Shown here piece by piece: positions 15,471-27,358 of a DNA stretch of 50,189 nt. Origin of the DNA: Desertifilum sp. SIO1I2 (GTDB taxonomy: Bacteria > Cyanobacteriota > Cyanobacteriia > Cyanobacteriales > Desertifilaceae). The stretch covers positions 20,519 through 70,707 of the forward strand of contig JAAHGE010000006.1 of assembly GCA_010672635.1 (NCBI GenBank). The letters are read 5' to 3'. The notes beneath the pieces are model-generated. The model ran no database searches, was not told the DNA's origin, and saw only the letters and a list, made by a program, of their open reading frames with translations. The number at the start of each line of letters is the position of its first letter. Within the stretch, counting starts at the first letter, position 1. The position numbers and the translations under genes are program-made.

Positions 15471-18341
15471 CTATTGACATCTGAGAACAGCAACAATCTT
15501 GATGTATGGATCGGGTTCCGTCGTCATCGACAACTCTACCCAATCCCGATAGTCCTTGAAAATCTTCTCAATGTGACTTAGTTCTCCCTGTCGTCGCTGT
15601 TGCTTGATAGCTTCGGGTCGCTTGTCATCCTCAAAGCGTAGCTCTAATTGTTCAATGTGGTATCCTTTCAACCGTTCCAACCGTTCCCGTTGTTCCTTCA
15701 GCTTGGGCGCGAGGGTTGCGTCAAAGAGCTGGCGTTCTTTCTGCAAGTAGGTCATCGCTTTTGCGATCGCCTGCGTTCTTAACGGTAACAAATCGCCAAC
15801 TTCAGTCGCGCCAGGATTCGGAATGGGACGTTGCCCCAACTCTGTACGCTGCACTGTCTCTGAAAACGGCTCTACCCGGATGAATTTTCCCCGCTCAAAA
15901 ACCACAGATACCCAGCGATTAATCACCGGAGAACCGCGACGGTTCGGGAAGCTGCCAAACAGCACGAACGTGACTTCCTGAGATGCCATGCCGTCATGCA
16001 GCAGTAAAACTGGAGCCTGATGCCGCCCAAACCGGAACAGGCAGCGATCGGTCAGCCACTCCATCAGCGGATGCAAATCCCACAAGTATTGCTTACTCGT
16101 CCAGGTTGCTTCCTGACGACGGGCATCCTCCATCGCTTTCATGATAGTCTGAGGGCGATCGCTTAGGTGCAGCAAGGCATTGTTTTGGGGGCGAATCTCA
16201 CGCGGCAGGCGATCGTAGCGACGTTCCAGTTCGGCTGGAAGCTGTAGCTCAATGAAGCGCTCCGTTTCGTTGATGTTCAGGTTGGGAGGGAGTTTTTCCA
16301 AGGATTGCAGGGCAGCGATCGCATATTGGAAGGTGGATGGAAACAGGCTCAATAGGGTTCCTTCTTTAACTGTTACCTGATGGTCGGTTCCCTCAGCGCT
16401 TTCCTCAACTTCATCGGGATTGTCATACCAGTCGAAGATGTTAAACTCTCCACCAGTAGCCGCATTTTCATCTAATTGTTGAGAAAATGCCTCCGCTGAC
16501 ATTCCCTCTTCAATCACTCTAGCGGTGACTTCCTCCTCGGCTTCTGCCTCAAACACCCCCATAAACACAGAGGGGTCGCCAATATTTTTGATTGCCTGCT
16601 CATCCTTATCCAGCAGCACTTTCACAATTCGCTCGACCTCATCCATGCGCTCCAGTTGAGAGCGGGTCAACAGATAGCGAATCTCCGGCTGACGGTTCTG
16701 CCCGTAGCGATCGATGCGTCCGTTACGCTGCTGCAATGTCATTAGCGACCAAGGGATGTCAAAGTGAATCAGTTTGTGGCTCAAGTAGTGCAGGTTCAAC
16801 CCCTCTGACGCTACTTCCGTCGCAATCAGAATGCGAACTTTGGCGTTCTCCTGCCCAAATTCCTCCACAATGCGCGTTTGATCGATATCCGGCATCCCAC
16901 CATCTAGGACACTAACCGCTTCCGGCTTTAACCCCAAATCCTTCACTAACTGCTCTTTCAAAAACCGCAGCGTTTCTAACCGCCCGCTGAAAATGACCAG
17001 CCTATCTTTGGCATCTCGACCCATCCAGCCAAAGTCCTTCTGAATTAGCTTGAGTAACCGCTGGTACTTGGAGAAATCTTCTACCCTGACTCGCACTAGA
17101 GCTTGTTTCAAGTCTTCTAGTTCAGCAATATCATTTCGATCCGCCTCATCAGCCTCCTCTTTCTTCGTTAACCGTTTCAGCCGATTCGTGACCGTCTCCA
17201 AACAAGCAGCAGGGCTGGAGAGCATCGCTTTGAGTAGCGTGGTTTTGAAAAGCTGCCCTGCCTTACGCCGACTGTCGATACTATGCAGCTTCAGTTCGTT
17301 GAGAATCTCAAAGACATCCTCTTCAGCCGTCGATGCCTGAGCCTCGACCGCCTCTACATTCCTCTCTGGCACATGCTGCTTCAAATCGTGAAGTACGTCC
17401 TTCTTGAAGCGCCGGACATACAAATCGCGAATGTCGTCTTTGGTGTAGTTGGACTCCGACGCGATCGCTGTCGGGTCGAGCATATTCATCAAACTGGCGA
17501 AGCTCTCCGGGCGACCATCATGCGGTGTAGCCGACAGCAGAATCAAAGTATCGGAACGAGTCGATAGCCGCTCTGCTAGCTTTGCCCGTTGGGACGCTCC
17601 CTCTCCTTTGCCACGACGAGCTACGTTATGAGCTTCGTCAATAATGATAATGTCCCAGTACGCCCGCTCCAGAAAGCTGCGATATTCCCGGTCTTGCTTG
17701 AGCGTATCAATGGAAACGATCGAGCGATCGTAGTAATGGAAGGGGTTGTGATTACCTGGAATTCGAGTCCGAATCCGTTGCAGTTGAATCGAATCAAGTC
17801 GAACCAAAGGAATTGTAAACCGACTCCAGAACTCCTTCTGAAACTGCACCATCATCGATTTGGTCGTCACGACCAAGATACGTCGCCCTTGCCCCCGACG
17901 AATGAGTTCAGACACCAAAATTCCACACTCTAGCGTCTTCCCCAACCCTACAGCATCAGCGATCAAAATCCGTTGCCTTGGCATCTGTAGAGCTTTGCTA
18001 ACAGGCAGCAGTTGATAGCTCATTACATCCATTGCTGCCCGTTGTCCCAAGTAAATTCTGCGATCGTCTGGAACGGTTTGCCGCAGATGAGACTCGATAA
18101 ACAACAAGCTGTGGTTGTATCCAGAGGATGTATCGGCGATTAACTCGGTTTCTTCTGGACGTAGGACTTGCAGGTCGTCTTCCAGGTTTTCAATAAATTG
18201 TGCTGTCCGTCCTCGGATGAATTCTGAGACACCAACGGCTTCAATAACCCGACCACCATCAGACGATTGAGTCGTGGACTTAACCAGCCACTCGGCATCT
18301 CGACAAAGGATACGCGCACCTGGAGCGATCGTTCTTACCAT
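15471..18341 (-). CDS. SNF2-family helicase (DISARM DrmD-like)
   Basis: LIADAVGLGKT, IIIDEAHN, LSATPHDG, TEVASEGLNL, QRNGRIDRYGQ. Confidence 0.9.
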   Translation of the reverse strand: MVRTIAPGARILCRDAEWLVKSTTQSSDGGRVIEAVGVSEFIRGRTAQFIENLEDDLQVLRPEETELIADTSSGYNHSLLFIESHLRQTVPDDRRIYLGQRAAMDVMSYQLLPVSKALQMPRQRILIADAVGLGKTLECGILVSELIRRGQGRRILVVTTKSMMVQFQKEFWSRFTIPLVRLDSIQLQRIRTRIPGNHNPFHYYDRSIVSIDTLKQDREYRSFLERAYWDIIIIDEAHNVARRGKGEGASQRAKLAERLSTRSDTLILLSATPHDGRPESFASLMNMLDPTAIASESNYTKDDIRDLYVRRFKKDVLHDLKQHVPERNVEAVEAQASTAEEDVFEILNELKLHSIDSRRKAGQLFKTTLLKAMLSSPAACLETVTNRLKRLTKKEEADEADRNDIAELEDLKQALVRVRVEDFSKYQRLLKLIQKDFGWMGRDAKDRLVIFSGRLETLRFLKEQLVKDLGLKPEAVSVLDGGMPDIDQTRIVEEFGQENAKVRILIATEVASEGLNLHYLSHKLIHFDIPWSLMTLQQRNGRIDRYGQNRQPEIRYLLTRSQLERMDEVERIVKVLLDKDEQAIKNIGDPSVFMGVFEAEAEEEVTARVIEEGMSAEAFSQQLDENAATGGEFNIFDWYDNPDEVEESAEGTDHQVTVKEGTLLSLFPSTFQYAIAALQSLEKLPPNLNINETERFIELQLPAELERRYDRLPREIRPQNNALLHLSDRPQTIMKAMEDARRQEATWTSKQYLWDLHPLMEWLTDRCLFRFGRHQAPVLLLHDGMASQEVTFVLFGSFPNRRGSPVINRWVSVVFERGKFIRVEPFSETVQRTELGQRPIPNPGATEVGDLLPLRTQAIAKAMTYLQKERQLFDATLAPKLKEQRERLERLKGYHIEQLELRFEDDKRPEAIKQQRRQGELSHIEKIFKDYRDWVELSMTTEPDPYIKIVAVLRCQ

Positions 18342-19207: not shown

Positions 19208-22200
19208 TCAACCTAGTACTGCTTGCTCCTCAGTAGCTTCATCCTCAAGCAGGATGGTGTTGAGAAGATTCAATTCACTAGATGCCATAAAGTAGCGATC
19301 GTCAAAAATTGTTTCTAATTGTCCAAATACCCGCCGCCCTGCCACAGCCACCCAAGGAAATGATCGATACTGTGCTATTACAGGCATCACCAAGCCTTGA
19401 GGCGTGAGGCAGCGTCCTAGTGCATTCCTCCAAGTTTGCGGGTCTTCTAATACCTGTTCCCGAATACCATCATCTAACTGCTCAATCCAAAAATGAGGAT
19501 AGTCCAGTGGTAGGCTGATTACAATATTCTCTGTTTTCAACGCCTGAAGTGTTGAGTATTCAAGGATTCTTTCCTTTTGTTCGCGAATCAATAGCTTGTG
19601 CAATTCCTTTGCTGGACGCTTGAGTTTTGGTGGAAACTTGGTTCCTTCATAAATCTGTCGTAGCAGTCCTAAAAGACGGCTGCTAGTCAGCTGAACATCA
19701 GTTCGCCATCCCTCAAAACTGAATCGCTCCTCAGTTTGGCGATCGCTCCAGTCTTCCATCCAAAACGAACCGATACAAGTTAGGCTCTCTGGAATCACTA
19801 GCGCTCCGGTATCCAACGAGGGTAATAACCGACTTGAAGGACGCGAAACCGTCTTGGCTAAAGCCTCCAAATCCTGATAATTTATATAGGATTTAGCATT
19901 CCTATGGGAGGCTAAACCTTGCAATTTGAAATGAGCAAAAATTGAAGAGGTTAGTTGCACTGCCTTGCTGACAATCCCTTTGACATCATCCAGGTGAGAA
20001 TCGCAGATAAAGACTCTAGCCTCGTGCAAGAAACTCCAAACATCCTCAGACATTAAGCTCAGCAATTCTTCGTCCCCAACTGCTCCAACGGGGACAAATG
20101 CGATCCGCTGTCGCCTGAGTCCGGCATCGCCTTTGATGCGCGTGTGAATTGTAGAACGCAACATCACGAGCAAAGTCAATAAATCGCTCGCCTGACGCAA
20201 CCAGACTCTTTGACGGTCAATGTCTTCTTCTACAACGAGAAAATCGTTGATGAGCATCACTAACCGTCTAGCTTTGTCATCTCCAGAAACTTGCGCTCTT
20301 GTTTCTGGATTTGTATACATCCCCCGACCCCGATAAATGAGTTGTGCAACTTCCATCAAAGCGGCTTCAATGTTGAAGCGGGGAATCGCAGCAATAATCC
20401 AATCTGTTTTGGGGAACGAGACTCCTCTTGCCCCTGAAGAAGTCATGAGAAAAACTCGGATCTGATCGCGTCGCGGCGGGGTAACCAGTTCCAAGCGTTG
20501 ATGCGGTGGCACGCTTTGATCCAGAACCTCTACCTGTTTGCTAGGCAATAGAGCATCTACTCCATTTGTCAACTTCTCCTGTAGCTGACGGAGAAATGCT
20601 TTATCTTGGGCAAAGAAAATTAGCTGCTGTGCGCCCTGTTTTAACCCGCGCTGGATTTCCTGATAAGCATTCGTTAACAACTCGTCTTCTAGTTGCTCTC
20701 GAATTGCTTGTCGGATTAAGAGCTTTCTACCATCACTAGTTAGCCCTGGTGTGATGGGTGAAAGGCGAATACTATAATCAATGCTTAGTTCAGACGCTGG
20801 ATAGCTATTTGTCATTACGTGTAGCGTCGGGTGTTTTTTGGGTCCTACTTTTGTATAAGTGCCCGTTACCCGAAACGGTGCTTCACCTTGACTTTGACTA
20901 ATTAGCACTTTATCAGGAGCGCGATTGCCGGAGTTAAGAAAGCTATTGAGAACAATTTCATTGCTCAACGAGGCATCGGCAACAATGAGAACAACCTTGA
21001 AGGGGCATTGAGTTCCCTCGAATGGTTCAATAAATTGCTGGTGCAAAAAGCAGGCTAACTTATGAACAAAAGGCGCTCCTGCACCATCGCCAGCTAATTC
21101 ATCAACCATCGCAATAATGGTTGGAATTCGCGCTCCAAACGCTAGACGTTCGTTTTTTCCAAGCGTCGTATTGGCTTTCTTTCCAAACAAATTGCTGAGG
21201 GCATCAACTGTAGTTGTTTGGTCGAGCGAGCGATAGCCTTGAATCGCCGCCGTCATTACCAACTGATTTACCTGCGGATTGCACGCAAGCAATCGTCGGG
21301 CAGCGCCTGCTAAGGTGCGTAATACACCCGGACGCTCTCGTGATTCCACGCTGTCTTCCCGTTCGGAGCGAGAACGCTTAACCCGAGTAGAGACGGCTAC
21401 ATTGCAATCAATCTCGTGTTCCTGTTCGGGGGTAAGGAAGACGGTACTGCAACTAGGTAAGCCAAGTTCTTCAATCCCATCTACAACAACAGCACTATCA
21501 ATCCGGCGATGTTCCCATCCATGTTTCTCGACTTGTTGTTTGTACCAGTTGGGAGCAGAAGCAATTAAATTGGCATTACTTGTGAGGGTTAATATACCAG
21601 TGGCATTCCCGTTATCTCTGGCGAGTTTTGCTGTGACATCTCGATTAATCACAACTCGTGGACTGACGTAAAGAAACAGGAAGCCTTGAGACTTTGCTTT
21701 GAGAAAATCCATGACAGCCGTAGTTTTGCCAATTCCAGGATTTCCCTCTAAGGCAATGACATTGAGCCTCCCTGCTTGGGCGCAATTTAAACCTGCAATG
21801 ACGGCGGCAGCATGAACTTGGCGTAACGGCAATTTTTCGTTCTGCGCTCGATGCTGCTCGAGGGCAAGTGCGAACTGGGATTGAGGATTTCCACCAAAAA
21901 ACTCACTCAGTGCTTCTGTTTCCTCAACGGCAGCGATCGCATCCTCCGATGACATCTCCTGCATCGGGTTATAAAATCCCTCTACGTTCTCCTGAAACAG
22001 GAAGTGCAGATCTCCGCCTAAGTCTGGCAGTTGTTTAATTTGCTCAGCTTGCTGTTTGAAAGTTGTAGGTAGCGATCGCACCAGTTTATTGAACACCAGA
22101 CGAATTTCTTGCTCTAGTTCACCAGGGGCATCATCACTGAGTTTGCGAACATCTCGATACGCTTCCCCCAATGATTTCATCAATCTGGCTCTGGGGTCAG

Positions 22201-23146
22201 CTTCTGGTTCCGTTCCTTTGAAATGAGCGGCAAGGCTTTCAAAGCCATTGGATGTTACCGCGATCGCTCTAGCACTAGAAGCTCCCTTTAACCGTCCACA
22301 CGCACACAAGAGGTGAATCAGGCGTTCAGTGTAGGATGATGCCTGACAAAGTTTGAACAATGGTTTATCGGAACCGCTAAATGCAGATAGATGACTCGCC
22401 AGATTGGACGAGAGCGAAAACTCCTCACCGTTTACCTCAGCACAAACCCTGGAAAAAACGCCGCGTGAATCAATGTAGCGAGCATAACGACTAATTTCTT
22501 CTCGGTGAGGGGTTTCAGTTCTAAAATCTGCCAGTTTCGCAGGCGCGTTATACGAGAATTCCAAACAGAGGATGAAGTTATCAAATTTCTGGCGTTTCTT
22601 CTGTTTTTGGGTAAGAGAGCTCCCATATTTATGCCTGAGATTCCCTTGAGTCTTCTCATCGGTCGATAACCATAAGAGAAAATCAGCTCTAGCTGGTTGT
22701 CCCTGTCGCAGTAAAGCCTTGTCTGGATTTCCTGGTAGGTTGAAAGCTGCTTGAAATACCCGCGCCGTCTCTTCTATTTCTTCGTCACTACCAGATAGCT
22801 GCCCTGGAAGCGTCAGTGGACACCAAATTGCTTCCAGCTTTGCTCGTGCGACAGGGTTGTGCTTGAGGCACTCCCGCATTGCCGTCCAGCCTAAACCATA
22901 GCCTAGTACCAGGAGATGACGCACCATCGTCCCTGCCCATTCTCGGGCATTCGTATCTGTCAGCTTGAGCGTTTTAACCAGTTGATTTTCAATATCTGCA
23001 TTTTTGACCGCTTGCCAAGGTTCGAGAACCCGTGCCCTGTCTGAAAGCAACCCTTGATGAATCAGATGAAGCAGAACCCCGCGTTTGACAGCAATTTCAA
23101 ACACCTGACCCCAAACGGATGCCTGAAGAAGAAACGATAACTGCAT
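19208..23146 (-). CDS. Large SF2 helicase-like protein with putative N-terminal PD-(D/E)xK-type nuclease domain
   Basis: Walker A GNPGIGKT, YVSPR (Ia), MVDE (II), ADAS (III), TSSGARGVSF (V), QLIYRGRG (VI). N-terminal ADFLLW...CLEFS pattern. ATG 23146 overlaps the upstream TGA. Confidence 0.75.
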   Translation of the reverse strand: MQLSFLLQASVWGQVFEIAVKRGVLLHLIHQGLLSDRARVLEPWQAVKNADIENQLVKTLKLTDTNAREWAGTMVRHLLVLGYGLGWTAMRECLKHNPVARAKLEAIWCPLTLPGQLSGSDEEIEETARVFQAAFNLPGNPDKALLRQGQPARADFLLWLSTDEKTQGNLRHKYGSSLTQKQKKRQKFDNFILCLEFSYNAPAKLADFRTETPHREEISRYARYIDSRGVFSRVCAEVNGEEFSLSSNLASHLSAFSGSDKPLFKLCQASSYTERLIHLLCACGRLKGASSARAIAVTSNGFESLAAHFKGTEPEADPRARLMKSLGEAYRDVRKLSDDAPGELEQEIRLVFNKLVRSLPTTFKQQAEQIKQLPDLGGDLHFLFQENVEGFYNPMQEMSSEDAIAAVEETEALSEFFGGNPQSQFALALEQHRAQNEKLPLRQVHAAAVIAGLNCAQAGRLNVIALEGNPGIGKTTAVMDFLKAKSQGFLFLYVSPRVVINRDVTAKLARDNGNATGILTLTSNANLIASAPNWYKQQVEKHGWEHRRIDSAVVVDGIEELGLPSCSTVFLTPEQEHEIDCNVAVSTRVKRSRSEREDSVESRERPGVLRTLAGAARRLLACNPQVNQLVMTAAIQGYRSLDQTTTVDALSNLFGKKANTTLGKNERLAFGARIPTIIAMVDELAGDGAGAPFVHKLACFLHQQFIEPFEGTQCPFKVVLIVADASLSNEIVLNSFLNSGNRAPDKVLISQSQGEAPFRVTGTYTKVGPKKHPTLHVMTNSYPASELSIDYSIRLSPITPGLTSDGRKLLIRQAIREQLEDELLTNAYQEIQRGLKQGAQQLIFFAQDKAFLRQLQEKLTNGVDALLPSKQVEVLDQSVPPHQRLELVTPPRRDQIRVFLMTSSGARGVSFPKTDWIIAAIPRFNIEAALMEVAQLIYRGRGMYTNPETRAQVSGDDKARRLVMLINDFLVVEEDIDRQRVWLRQASDLLTLLVMLRSTIHTRIKGDAGLRRQRIAFVPVGAVGDEELLSLMSEDVWSFLHEARVFICDSHLDDVKGIVSKAVQLTSSIFAHFKLQGLASHRNAKSYINYQDLEALAKTVSRPSSRLLPSLDTGALVIPESLTCIGSFWMEDWSDRQTEERFSFEGWRTDVQLTSSRLLGLLRQIYEGTKFPPKLKRPAKELHKLLIREQKERILEYSTLQALKTENIVISLPLDYPHFWIEQLDDGIREQVLEDPQTWRNALGRCLTPQGLVMPVIAQYRSFPWVAVAGRRVFGQLETIFDDRYFMASSELNLLNTILLEDEATEEQAVLG

Positions 23147-25257
23147 CACTTCCTCCGGTGCAGGACTTGAGAAACATGGCTGAGTAAGGCGAGATAGCTG
23201 AGTAATACCCGTCCTTTTCGACGAGTGTGCAAAACTTCCACTTCTCCAGCCGCTTCAGTGGTAGTCGGTGAGATCCAACTAAAAGGATCGAGTACCGGAA
23301 TAAGTTGTCCCTTTACGACCCCTCGTTCAGCTTCGATAAAATGCAATCCTCGCAGCACTGCAATCAAGCAGGGATGAACGCTAGACTGCTGTTCTGGATT
23401 TACTAAGTGTTGACGAGCGCGTTCAGTCCAGTCAATATTGCTAACCCGCTGGTCAGATACTAAGAAATAGACGCAGAAACCCGACTGCGGACGCTGCTGT
23501 TCTTGAATTGCAAAAAGTGTGGCAAATGTATAGACCGGAATGACATCACGCACGCGAACTTTTTCAACAGACTGCAAGAAATTTGTATGGTCTCCAGCAC
23601 GTAAGATTTCAAAGGCGGCTTCTCGTGCGTCGCGTTTATGCAATCTTGTAGCGGGAAATACATCCCGCAGCATTGTGTAAATGGTTAAATCGGGGAAAGT
23701 TTGAAAGACTTCTTCCAGAAATTCTTTATTGGTTAAGTGAGAATTGTAATCTGCCGCTCGGTTAATCCGGCGACCGCCATAGGCATGAGACAATAAAATA
23801 ATGTGCTTACATCCTTTGGCTTTTAGATAACCAATCTCTTCTTGCACCAGTCGTTGTTTTTTCAATTGTTGGGGAGAATCAACGACATCAAATTGCATTC
23901 GCTCCATCTTAAGTTCGTAACCTGAAAACGGTTGATGGAGTGCTGTAGCAACATAACTTTGGGTGATAAAAAGATAGCCCTTTTCATCTTCACTCAGAGA
24001 GGGCATCTCATCGCAGGGACGGATTGCATAGGAAATTAAACCAATCTTGGGGACTGTTGGAGGATTTGGTGTACTGATGGCAAGCGGAAACGCACTTAAC
24101 AAAGCGTTAAAAATGCCAGATTTAATGTATTTTGAATCTGATCGAGTCAGATTTGGAAGAACAACCCCCTGCATTCGGATGGAAGTGTTTTCAGCCAGTA
24201 TAGCTTCAAGGGCTTGGGCGGCTGCATAAACATAAGAATCGCCGCTTCCACTTTTTTCATCAGTTTCTTTTCCCATTGCTTGTAGCCGCAGCATCAAGGT
24301 TGTAAACTCAGCAGATGTCGAATCACCCGATTGCTTCAACCGTTGGATGATGCGCCACAAGCAGCAGTAAGCTAGTACTACGAAGGCAGCAACTGCTGCT
24401 GCATGATACTGCTTACTTTCCTCAGATTTTTTGTCGGGTCGCCGATTCAATGTGTCAACATCGTATTCAACTTGAATGGCGGCTGGTAATACCCATCCTT
24501 TTGCTGTAAGAGCGGTTTCAGAAACTTTGTATGTCCGTTGACCGTTTCCCCCCTTTTGAGAACAATACGGAACCCAACAAATTTGAAGGAGTTGCTTTGA
24601 CAATAAGCGTTGTGCCTGAATTGAATGGGTATTTCCTTGGGTTGCCAAACTGTATTCAGAAAGTTCAGTGTTAACCTTGACTGAGAACAAAAGTCCCGGA
24701 GTTTCTGGTTGATCGCAAATTTCAATGTGTTTGAACCATTCCACCTGTTCGCGGGAACGTTGTTGGGGTCCTACGAGCAAATCTCTCACGCCAGCTTCTG
24801 CCCCTTCTAATCGCGACCACTGGATGATGCTTCGCTTCACACAGATGAATTGTTGGGAAGAATGACGCTGAACTTGGGAAATTATCTTTTGGCTTTTCGT
24901 GCGGAGTATGGAAATCAAAGCTGTGGCAATTGATTCCATTGACTTGGCTCGTATCCGTAAATCCTGTAAAATCGTTTTCACAGCCTCTTTTCCTTGCGAT
25001 TGCAGGAAGGAAAGAAGTTGAGCCACTGAATTCGGTATAGTTTCTTTAGATAGCGAGACTTGACTATTCCGAGGTACAACAATTGCTAGGAATATCAGTT
25101 CGGCTAAACGGCGACAAATTGTTCCGGGTTGTAGTGGTGAGTTCTCCTCATTCGTGAGTAAATCTTCTTCAATTTTCTCAAGTCTGGCTTCAAATGCGGG
25201 TTTGCCAAATTCAGGATTTTCTCCGTTAACTCGAAAGCGATAGCTAACCTCCCGAGT
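23146..25257 (-). CDS. Divergent Argonaute-like MID-PIWI protein, 5' end truncated
   Basis: Frame stays open to a TGA at 25258-25260, 77 codons beyond the tracked GTG 25026. The C-terminal ~330 aa follow MID/PIWI strand-helix order; DEDX residues are not recognisable. Fold call is inference. Confidence 0.6.
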   Translation of the reverse strand, partial: TREVSYRFRVNGENPEFGKPAFEARLEKIEEDLLTNEENSPLQPGTICRRLAELIFLAIVVPRNSQVSLSKETIPNSVAQLLSFLQSQGKEAVKTILQDLRIRAKSMESIATALISILRTKSQKIISQVQRHSSQQFICVKRSIIQWSRLEGAEAGVRDLLVGPQQRSREQVEWFKHIEICDQPETPGLLFSVKVNTELSEYSLATQGNTHSIQAQRLLSKQLLQICWVPYCSQKGGNGQRTYKVSETALTAKGWVLPAAIQVEYDVDTLNRRPDKKSEESKQYHAAAVAAFVVLAYCCLWRIIQRLKQSGDSTSAEFTTLMLRLQAMGKETDEKSGSGDSYVYAAAQALEAILAENTSIRMQGVVLPNLTRSDSKYIKSGIFNALLSAFPLAISTPNPPTVPKIGLISYAIRPCDEMPSLSEDEKGYLFITQSYVATALHQPFSGYELKMERMQFDVVDSPQQLKKQRLVQEEIGYLKAKGCKHIILLSHAYGGRRINRAADYNSHLTNKEFLEEVFQTFPDLTIYTMLRDVFPATRLHKRDAREAAFEILRAGDHTNFLQSVEKVRVRDVIPVYTFATLFAIQEQQRPQSGFCVYFLVSDQRVSNIDWTERARQHLVNPEQQSSVHPCLIAVLRGLHFIEAERGVVKGQLIPVLDPFSWISPTTTEAAGEVEVLHTRRKGRVLLSYLALLSHVSQVLHRRK

Positions 25258-25283
25258 TCAGCGTCATTCTTCCCAACAATTCA
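24846..25283. repeat. 29-bp perfect inverted repeat enclosing 380 bp
   Basis: TGAATTGTTGGGAAGAATGACGCTGAACT at 24846-24874 and its reverse complement at 25255-25283; extends to 34 bp with one mismatch. Confidence 0.95.
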
Positions 25284-25355
25284 AAAATTAGCAGGCGTTT
25301 AAGCATAATTTTTGTCAGCGATGAGTATATCTATCCTATTCCCCTATTAGGAGAC

Positions 25356-25967
25356 TTGCTGCGAGGGATTGAAATTGTAGAGCTTTCTAATATAATTCTA
25401 TTCGCCGTTTTAGGATTAGGATTTGGCATTGCCTGCGGTTTATTACCCCGACATTTAGGCCGTAAAGTCAGCATTTTCTTACTGATTCCAATTGTGCCCA
25501 TCTTGTTTAATATTACCGGCTTAGTCCGCTATCGAGAATGGTTAAGAGAAGTGGGCGCTCAAGAAAGCTTGCTACCCGCAGAAGCACAAAGCATGACCAA
25601 TGATTTCTTGCACAGCCGGGTGGGTAAAAAAGGCTATCTCGGCTTTTACCTGTTTACCGCCCAATACCCCGTTATCCCCACCAACCAGCAGCAAATGGAG
25701 GAAATGCAGAACGTCGATAACCGCGTCAAAGCCCGATTTAACCGCATGGTAGGCTCGCAAGCCTGGATCGTCAATTTTATCTTTGCAGCCCAAGGATGGA
25801 TTCTGCGGCTATTTTATTTTGGGATTGCTGCCATTGCTACCATTTTTCACTTTCAAGAAGGGATTAAAGAGTCGGAAAAATTCAGTCGCAAGCATCCGAA
25901 ATCCCAGCCCGCGCCCCCGCAACCTAGAGTTAAAAGACCCAAACCTCAAGATAGCGAAATTTCCTAA
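25356..25967 (+). CDS. Hypothetical membrane protein, probably 5'-truncated
   Basis: Several TM segments; frame open from 25248 with no ATG; protein-like YIYPIPLLGDLLRG lies upstream of the TTG start. Confidence 0.6.
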   Translation: MLRGIEIVELSNIILFAVLGLGFGIACGLLPRHLGRKVSIFLLIPIVPILFNITGLVRYREWLREVGAQESLLPAEAQSMTNDFLHSRVGKKGYLGFYLFTAQYPVIPTNQQQMEEMQNVDNRVKARFNRMVGSQAWIVNFIFAAQGWILRLFYFGIAAIATIFHFQEGIKESEKFSRKHPKSQPAPPQPRVKRPKPQDSEIS

Positions 25968-27358
25968 ACGCGATCGCCCTTCACCCCCATCGTCAATTCT
26001 TGGCGCAGGCGATAGAGAATCGTATTGGGTTCTACCTGATTGAGAATATCTTGAATCACCGTATTCGCCCCCAAAGGTCCCCAAGTGCATCCCTGTTCGA
26101 GGTAGACTTGAGCCACCCGTCCCACCTTATACGCCCCGTATCCGGCTAATGTAGCTTGAGCGATCGCCGTTCCTGCATAAGCCGTCACGCTTAACGCCCC
26201 CTCTCCAGCAGCCCCCACAGCAGCGGCGGTACTTTTACCCAACCCCATCAATAGGCTACTGCCCAACTCGCCGAGTAACAAACCCCCAGAACTGAGTAAA
26301 ATCGTCTTCCAGAGTTTCCCCGCCTCATAATTGGTCATCGGCAAGTCGTATAATTTCCCCAACGCCCGAATCAGCGCCAAATCTGCCCCTGCACCTCCTA
26401 CAAGGTCTAGAATCGCAATGGGATTGGCTGCTACTGCGATCGCCTTATAGCGAGCAAACTTCCAGATTAACGCCTCCGCTTCGCGATCGCGCAACTCCAA
26501 CGTCTTGCGGGCAATATTGACGCTGGCTTCCCGCGCCTGTACCATCGCATTCAACGCCAACAAGCTGCGTCCCTCGCGGTTGAGTAACTCCAACAGCTTG
26601 TGCTTCAGTTCGTCTACCTGCGGCTTCGGCGTCTCCCACTCATACGTCACCCGTCCATCGGGCCATTCTAAGCGCATCTGGCGCGGAATTGGATCGGCTG
26701 CAACCCGGACAATTTCATTCGGCGTGAGTAGCTTGCTTTGCGCTTCCGTCGCGCCCAACTGCTGTAACTTGCGATAAATCGCCTCAATATCCTGTTCCGG
26801 GTACAAATCCGTTTTATTAAACACCAAAATTAGCGGTTTCTGGGCTTGTTCCAACTCCAGCAGCGCCTGATATTCCGTCCGGGTAATATCTCCCGCCACA
26901 ATAAATAGAATTAAATCGGACTGACGCGCCACCGATCGCGCCATCTCCGCCCGCGCTTGTCCTTGAATCTCATCTAACCCTGGCGTGTCAATTAACTCAA
27001 CTTGCACCTTGCCATTATTCTGAGGCGTCCACCGCACCGAACGCGGCCATTGCGTCACCCCATTTAACGGCCCCGTTTGCAAAACCTTTTCTCCCATTAA
27101 GGCATTGAGAACGGCCGACTTCCCGCGACTGACTAAACCAAACGCCGCGATCCGAATTACCCCTTGGTCGAGTTTATCTAAGCTGGACTTTAAGACCTCA
27201 ACTTCCGGCTTTAAGGCCGCTTGCAGGCTTGGGTTCAGGGCAATTTGCCGATGGCGGTTGAGTTGTCCATACTGCGCGATCGCCTGTTTCAGACTCGCGC
27301 GGGCGCTTTTGAGATGAGACTCTTGCAGGTTCGGTTGAGGAGAAGGTGAGTTGCTCAA
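25964..27358 (-). CDS. Era-like GTP-binding protein with DUF697-type C-terminus
   Basis: GLVSRGKS, DTPG, NKTD; C-terminal hydrophobic helices. Confidence 0.9.
   Translation of the reverse strand: MSNSPSPQPNLQESHLKSARASLKQAIAQYGQLNRHRQIALNPSLQAALKPEVEVLKSSLDKLDQGVIRIAAFGLVSRGKSAVLNALMGEKVLQTGPLNGVTQWPRSVRWTPQNNGKVQVELIDTPGLDEIQGQARAEMARSVARQSDLILFIVAGDITRTEYQALLELEQAQKPLILVFNKTDLYPEQDIEAIYRKLQQLGATEAQSKLLTPNEIVRVAADPIPRQMRLEWPDGRVTYEWETPKPQVDELKHKLLELLNREGRSLLALNAMVQAREASVNIARKTLELRDREAEALIWKFARYKAIAVAANPIAILDLVGGAGADLALIRALGKLYDLPMTNYEAGKLWKTILLSSGGLLLGELGSSLLMGLGKSTAAAVGAAGEGALSVTAYAGTAIAQATLAGYGAYKVGRVAQVYLEQGCTWGPLGANTVIQDILNQVEPNTILYRLRQELTMGVKGDRV

Follow-up and report, generated by a model that had tools for sequence, protein, structure and literature searches.

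The window analysed here, 50,189 nucleotides (nt) of Desertifilum sp. SIO1I2 (assembly GCA_010672635.1, contig JAAHGE010000006.1, positions 20,519 to 70,707), likely encodes the PIWI domain, devoid of the slicer tetrad, of a cryptic long-Argonaute-like protein that would load guides and recognize targets in partnership with a coupled superfamily 2 (SF2) helicase. In all probability, the two genes form a bacterial defence system not described before, in which this protein holds the guide and acts as the sensor.

The open reading frame (ORF) for the Argonaute-like protein occupies 23146 to 25026 of the minus strand and specifies 626 amino acids (aa) from a GTG start at 25026, and the frame stays open to 25257. 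The original prediction, made by a model from the nucleotide sequence alone, concerned positions 23146 to 24100, which correspond to ORF residues 309 to 626, that is, the PIWI domain and the stop codon. Members of the family are about 1,060 aa long and have the architecture of long Argonautes. The best homolog, P0003 (1,064 aa), is 98% identical across the 626-aa ORF, and the open frame of the window is 97% identical to P0003 residues 365 to 1064. The window copy is without the N-terminal 364 or so residues, and residues 1 to 405 are encoded at the extreme end of C212, a different contig in this assembly. Residue i of the window ORF is residue i+438 of the full-length protein.

Fold and catalytic positions of the PIWI domain

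The Argonaute-like protein has no match in Pfam, NCBIfam, PADLOC, or sequence and profile searches of the PDB. The Pfam Piwi model (PF02171) and the pPIWI_RE models failed to match any of the family members searched at E values up to 1; PF02171 recovers 24 ordinary long prokaryotic Argonautes (pAgos) in 301 genomes of the phylum and nothing in the source genome or its congener. When the family was compared by hhalign with 22 canonical cyanobacterial pAgos, both at full length and over the PIWI domain only, the probability was below 1% and the alignment was topologically wrong, making it unusable for mapping the tetrad.

The identity of the protein emerges from its predicted structure. An alignment of 70 sequences, drawn from about 214 clusters (50% identity) with homologs from three phyla, produced an AlphaFold model of the full-length protein with a predicted local distance difference test score (pLDDT) of 90.0 and a predicted template modelling score (pTM) of 0.90. 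All 50 matches listed when this model was searched against the PDB with Foldseek are Argonaute or PIWI proteins (probability, 0.98 to 1.00). Modelling of the window's own segment from 23149 to 24057 (303 aa) returned a pLDDT of 89.4 and a pTM of 0.90, and Argonautes were top-ranked in three independent structural searches. Isolated AGO MID domains (4g0m and 2xdy) align to residues 584 to 752 of the full-length model. At the level of fold, the modelled domain is unambiguously PIWI, with its RNase H-like fold intact, so the prediction that the domain is PIWI-like stands on structural grounds. Membership in the Argonaute/PIWI superfamily holds at the fold level only and is not apparent at the sequence level. 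The modelled architecture comprises an N-terminal extension of about 170 residues followed by a region that aligns to whole long Argonautes and ends in the MID and PIWI domains.

Fold comparison tools supply aligned ranges and not residue pairs, such that the positions of the tetrad were mapped with an accuracy of about 2 to 4 residues. The second model, that of the window segment, starts three residues ahead of beta1, which makes the first aligned pair an anchor for this strand. Its residue 1 pairs with residue 436 of MpAgo, 467/468 of TtAgo, 660 of Siwi, 604 of Drosophila Piwi, 585/587 of hAgo2, 548 of PfAgo, 494 of MjAgo, and 964 of KpAgo, and its residue 5 pairs with residue 521 of KmAgo. 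The first catalytic Asp lies 10 to 12 residues past the anchor in MpAgo, TtAgo, Siwi, Piwi, hAgo2 (D597), PfAgo, MjAgo, KpAgo, and KmAgo. In TtAgo, the first catalytic Asp is D478, and D669 and H807 of hAgo2 are likewise confirmed (PMC2912339); the same source gives D597 of hAgo2 as D557, which is taken as a misprint. With the first Asp 10 to 12 residues past the anchors, the corresponding residues of the model are 11 to 13, which are A334 to R336, at the end of the motif IGLISYA (24025 to 24045).

In the RNase H fold, the second catalytic Asp is located where strand 4, the sole strand between helix A and helix B, ends on its C-terminal side. The only strand of the model between these two helices is HIILLSH, which places the second Asp position at H414, within the motif ILLSHAYG (23776 to 23799). 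For the fourth position, three anchors agree: residue 642 of TtAgo pairs with full-length residue 1003, putting D660 at about 1021; residues 634/635 of MpAgo pair with 1032/1033, putting N624 at about 1022; and residues 713/714 of KmAgo pair with 1023/1025. Together, these anchors set the fourth position at approximately W584 (full-length W1022), and a comparison with the motif R-L-P-x-P-x-Y-x-A-D of cyanobacterial pAgos gives the same position. The region of the glutamate finger, just after strand 3, contains D383 and Q386 in the window and is not conserved. Thus placed, the motifs bear out what the prediction had said of them: IGLISYA, which contains no Asp, forms the first strand of the RNase H-like sheet in the AlphaFold model, and ILLSHAYG falls at the strand equivalent to that of the canonical RDG motif, HIILLSH being the fourth strand.

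The absence of catalytic residues extends to the entire family. Within the beta1 window (columns 766 to 774), only 0 to 2 acidic residues occur per 70 members, and within beta4 and its end (columns 847 to 854), there are 0 to 3 per 70. Position 852 is His in 53 of the 70 members, position 1022 is Trp in 59, and the best acidic columns of the finger region reach just 31/70 and 44/70. In not one of the 70 members do the beta1 and beta4 windows both contain an acidic residue, which makes a two-metal site of the RNase H type impossible throughout the family, even if the register were in error by a few residues. On the modelled strand positions, slicing by the canonical mechanism is shown to be excluded for the family, within the 2- to 4-residue error of the mapping. 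The prediction that the slicer tetrad is missing therefore applies to the window and to the 70 homologs alike, among which no conserved acidic residues were found at tetrad positions. With no slicer tetrad anywhere in the family, it is the partner or the host, as opposed to the Argonaute, that experimenters must examine for the effector activity.

All five motifs quoted in the prediction lie within the ORF, and they are not chance occurrences, being among the best-conserved columns of the 70 homologs from three phyla. In the MID domain, conservation is highest at Y705 (65/70), at Q724-G725 (70/70), and in a basic helix at 737 to 741; in the PIWI domain, R774, just after beta1, is invariant, and the other best-conserved segments are LRDVFPATR, P-x-Y-T-F-A-T-L, RPQSGFC-x-YF, L-R-G-x-H-F-x-E-x-E, and PVLDPF-x-W. 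Judged by strand order and motif likeness in the model, LRDVFPATR, RPQSG, and LDPFSW appear to correspond to canonical Argonaute motifs, with LDPFSW occupying the place of the P-x-P-x-Y-Y-A-[DH] segment. The canonical counterparts of these three segments line the guide/target channel beside the active site. It had been suggested that the segments may form a family-specific pocket for guide or target; they would instead be inherited elements of the channel and pseudo-active site and not inventions of this family. Conservation of the channel-lining PIWI segments argues that nucleic-acid binding has been retained, and with these segments and the residues of the MID pocket as its most conserved parts, the protein most likely still loads a guide.

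The helicase partner and related systems

The partner gene encodes an SF2 helicase-related protein in which Walker A and motifs II, V, and VI are intact, Walker A lies at about residue 470, and an N-terminal region (residues 1 to 430) and a C-terminal region (residues 960 to 1313) flank the helicase core. Loci were retrieved with 22 closer sequences, yielding 79 from Cyanobacteria, Beta-, Gamma-, and Alphaproteobacteria, and Actinomycetota. In every locus with room for it (78/78), a helicase gene of 1,280 to 1,320 aa occurs immediately downstream on the same strand, supporting the predicted coupling of the PIWI protein to a helicase. No third gene is conserved, the next commonest cluster being present in 22 of the 79 loci, and the flanking genes vary between genomes. 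Besides the source genome, full-length copies occur in only 2 of 40 related genomes searched. The Argonaute-helicase pair has the profile of a mobile two-gene module of the defence type.

The prediction had described the partner as a helicase-nuclease, and the nuclease part of that description is so far unsupported. Neither Pfam, applied to 31 members, nor a profile search of the PDB revealed a nuclease domain; in hhalign, the probability against a RecB/Cas4-type profile (PDDEXK_1, 20 cyanobacterial proteins) was below 1%, and the N-terminal part of the partner had no solid nuclease match in the ESM Atlas.

Several features of the module and its surroundings were noted in passing. Residues 1 to 280 of the partner (22300 to 23146) contain invariant D156, E197-x-S199, D261-K262, and Q269-x3-Y273, which are reminiscent of RecB/Cas4-type motifs and constitute a candidate site. 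Residues 950 to 1313 (19208 to 20300) have weak ESM Atlas leads (0.75 to 0.78) to clusters of the Cas3 C-terminal domain (Cas3_C), a hint that this region is an accessory domain of the helicase resembling that of Cas3 and not a nuclease. Adjoining the Argonaute-helicase pair, a minus-strand gene (15471 to 18341) encodes a 956-aa SNF2 helicase whose best match is DrmD of DISARM (PADLOC, 4.9e-99; NCBIfam DrmD below the cut-off), giving the pair a defence-island context. Three other cyanobacterial genomes contain open frames of about 1,000 aa with weak matches (E of about 1e-4 to 1e-5) to the Argonaute-like protein, and these may be very distant branches of the family.

Among known systems, the module belongs with the "inactive Argonaute plus helicase" kind. 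The best functional analogy is DdmDE of Vibrio cholerae, which consists of DdmE, a "long-C" pAgo without the DEDX tetrad, and DdmD, a helicase-nuclease (10.1101/2024.05.10.593530). In both cases, an inactive long Argonaute is encoded beside a large SF2 helicase in a two-gene module. The systems differ in that the Argonaute-like protein described here, at about 1,064 aa, includes an N-terminal extension not covered by Argonaute matches, and its gene precedes that of the helicase. In the partner, 430 aa of N-terminal sequence come before Walker A, and a C-terminal PD-(D/E)xK domain was not detected. Kinship with DdmE found no support in profile searches, which detected no sequence relation: the family profiles retrieved neither DdmE nor DdmD from all PDB chains (2026 copy; E up to 10), a set that should include the DdmDE entries 9EZX and 9EZY. 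DdmE was also not among the 50 matches listed in the structural searches, which does not exclude a structural likeness.

The ApsAB system of E. coli ST38 pairs a helicase-containing protein with an "Argonaute-like" protein having the MID motif Y-x3-K...QG...K, and ApsAB-like systems occur in cyanobacteria as well (PMC11096173). The family described here has Y705...Q724-G725, with Q, H, or K at position 709 and the basic cluster at 737 to 741 in place of the last Lys. Whereas ApsB is reported to be without the RNase H fold of PIWI (PMC11096173), that fold is clear in the model of the present protein, and the gene order and sizes also differ (ApsB is about 740 to 790 aa). In hhalign comparisons with the ApsB-like and ApsA-like proteins of Nostoc sp. 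LPT, the probabilities were 0.04 and 0.19, respectively. That genome encodes an ApsAB-like pair (C127:153000-164000; 1,314-aa ApsA-like and 791-aa ApsB-like proteins) in addition to the Argonaute-helicase module, such that two unrelated modules occur in one genome.

The PIWI-RE proteins are divergent bacterial PIWI proteins, mostly tetrad-less, whose operons also encode a helicase of the DinG type and a nuclease of the restriction type (Burroughs et al. 2013; PsPIWI-RE, PMC10991935). The present family resembles them in the clustering of a divergent, tetrad-less PIWI protein with a helicase, but it forms a two-gene module as opposed to a three-gene operon and, as noted above, is not matched by the pPIWI_RE models. 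No DinG signature was found in the helicase partner by Pfam (31 members). The inactive long-B pAgos (RsAgo and the long-B pAgo-nuclease systems) and SPARTA, SPARDA, and SPARSA are recognized by the Pfam Piwi model, unlike the family described here, and the effectors of long-B and short pAgos are nucleases or TIR or SIR2 domains and not a giant helicase.

Alternative readings and proposed role

Several observations weigh against reading the pair as an inactive, guide-holding Argonaute with its helicase. The searches of the helicase partner by Pfam, PDB profiles, and hhalign found no nuclease. The tetrad equivalences, mapped from ranges rather than from residue-level superposition, are uncertain by about 2 to 4 residues, and Asp predominates (55 of the 70 members, 79%) at D580 (D1018), only four residues away from where the fourth position maps. 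E595 (E1033) is acidic in all 70 members, and no role has been assigned to the nearly invariant H562, E565, and E567. That the protein binds guides, recognizes targets, and serves in defence is in each case our inference. An assembly junction cuts short the window copy, which may be either whole or damaged in the organism itself.

The conserved polar residues raise the question of whether the PIWI domain is still a nuclease that operates through a noncanonical site, composed of H408, H414, D339, D580, H562, E565, E567, and E595. Near-invariance of H1000 (70/70), E1033 (acidic in 70/70), E1005 (68/70), and E911 (68/70; E473 in the ORF, also with no assigned role) speaks for such a site, as does the presence of His at the second Asp position in 76% of members. 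Its proposed constituents are nevertheless replaceable: about 30% of members have Asn, Ser, or Thr instead of D339, and others have Arg, Gln, Asn, or Lys where H414 would be. Moreover, the obligate helicase partner fits an inactive sensor, and no RNase H-like enzyme is known to function without carboxylates on strands 1 and 4, which renders a surviving nuclease very improbable. Even less credible is that the domain is not PIWI at all and instead belongs to the CHAT/caspase-like or another alpha/beta hydrolase type. This idea derives from two homologs named "CHAT domain-containing protein" in NCBI or UniRef, from an SHxxGG motif, and from a weak phmmer match to an alpha/beta hydrolase across ILLSHAYGG (E of 1.8). 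Pfam CHAT (PF12770) had no match in 22 members at E up to 1, and no caspase or hydrolase fold was present among the structural matches listed, which Argonautes headed, so a CHAT/caspase-like identity was rejected on the basis of the fold searches and Pfam. The two homologs in question, P0052 and P0088, look like annotation errors. A further alternative accepts the fold and dispenses with the guide: as in the Mediator subunit Med13, the Argonaute fold would act as a scaffold only, and the role of the pair would be the sensing of DNA structures or control of the helicase, with no targeting of specific sequences. This is improbable given that the MID residues Y705 and Q724-G725 are nearly or fully invariant, that a basic helix takes the place of the canonical Lys helix, and that the best-conserved motifs are the channel-lining PIWI segments, which is the pattern expected of a retained nucleic-acid pocket.

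Specific to this genome is the alternative that the gene was decapitated by a rearrangement at 25255, mediated by an inverted repeat that spans the junction, and that the PIWI-encoding remnant is a nonfunctional pseudogene. Consistent with this view, the window sequence upstream of 25255 has no relation to the Argonaute-like gene apart from its first 42 nt, which repeat an internal segment of the gene in inverted orientation, and the first in-frame start yields merely 626 aa. Yet the missing 5' third exists at the end of C212 and overlaps the window by exactly 126 nt, which is the signature of a branch in a de Bruijn graph, and the remaining frame is open and nearly identical to an intact homolog. 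In an assembly of 1,045 contigs, the junction at 25255 is most simply a graph branch that arose from an assembly artefact or a minority variant. We accordingly regard a pseudogene as unlikely, and the Argonaute-like gene is probably intact in the organism.

If the Argonaute-like protein is an inactive sensor coupled to a helicase, as we favor, it would still load a short nucleic-acid guide and recognize complementary invader DNA. By analogy with DdmDE, it would then recruit or activate the coupled downstream SF2 helicase, which would unwind or clear the target. More tentatively, the family could represent an unrecognized clade of long Argonautes, invisible at the sequence level and comprising about 214 clusters (50% identity) from at least three phyla, that is bound to a giant SF2 helicase lacking a recognizable nuclease in a defence system of two genes, directed by guides. 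Such a system may differ mechanistically from DdmDE, for example, through guide-targeted unwinding or displacement or through recruitment of a host nuclease, with the His and Trp that replace catalytic residues perhaps shaping a handover site.

Catalogues of immune systems built on Argonautes usually rely on sequence searches with models of PIWI and MID, all of which this family escapes, although it is widespread in cyanobacteria and occurs also in proteobacteria and actinobacteria. If the system is guide directed, then an inactive Argonaute has been joined to a helicase independently three times, the other two cases being DdmDE and ApsAB, which would suggest that the combination has recurred as a means of removing invading DNA. 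The family would then offer a new programmable DNA-binding scaffold as well.

Feature coordinates and genes beyond the contig junction

Table 1. Positions, in window coordinates, of the two genes of the module, their domains and motifs, and the repeats at the junction
Feature	Position	Strand	Remarks
Partner gene, 1,313-aa SF2 helicase-related protein	19208..23149	-	Walker A GNPGIGKTT; motif II DELAGDG; motif V TSSGARG; motif VI QLIYRGRG
TGATG stop/start overlap of Argonaute-like and helicase genes	23144..23148	-	Preceded by GGAGG; translational coupling
Argonaute-like gene, C-terminal two thirds	23146..25257	-	About residues 364-1064 of a protein of ~1,064 aa
PIWI domain, RNase H-like fold	23149..24072	-	Full-length residues 757-1064 (model)
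LDPFSW segment	23275..23292	-	Fourth tetrad position maps to ~W584 (23275-23277); D580 four residues upstream
RPQSG motif	23479..23493	-	Start of strand equivalent to canonical G-T-x-R-P / H-Y-H-V-L; Q 65/70, S 67/70
LRDVFPATR strand	23644..23670	-	In place of canonical K-R-H-H-T-R-L-F strand; R461 in 66/70
PIWI strand beta4, HIILLSH (residues 408-414)	23785..23805	-	Second catalytic ("RDG") Asp maps to H414 (23785-23787)
PIWI strand beta1, KIGLISYAIRP	24016..24048	-	First catalytic Asp maps to A334 (24025-24027), range A334-R336
MID domain	24085..24591	-	Full-length residues 584-752; Y267, invariant Q286-G287, basic helix (K299-S303 region); structural alignment and conservation
Inverted repeat, arms 24846-24887 and 25242-25283	24846..25283		42 nt, 90% complementary; spans the truncation junction
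Exact-identity stretch, 126 nt, equal to last 126 nt of C212	25130..25255		Assembly-graph branch; 5' third of gene lost from contig

Beyond the assembly junction, a minus-strand gene (25964 to 27358) encodes a dynamin/Era-like GTPase with DUF697 (slr1306 family), and a start-less plus-strand frame (25248 to 25967), without a Pfam match, is convergent with it. Because both lie on the far side of the junction, their adjacency to the Argonaute-like gene may be artificial.

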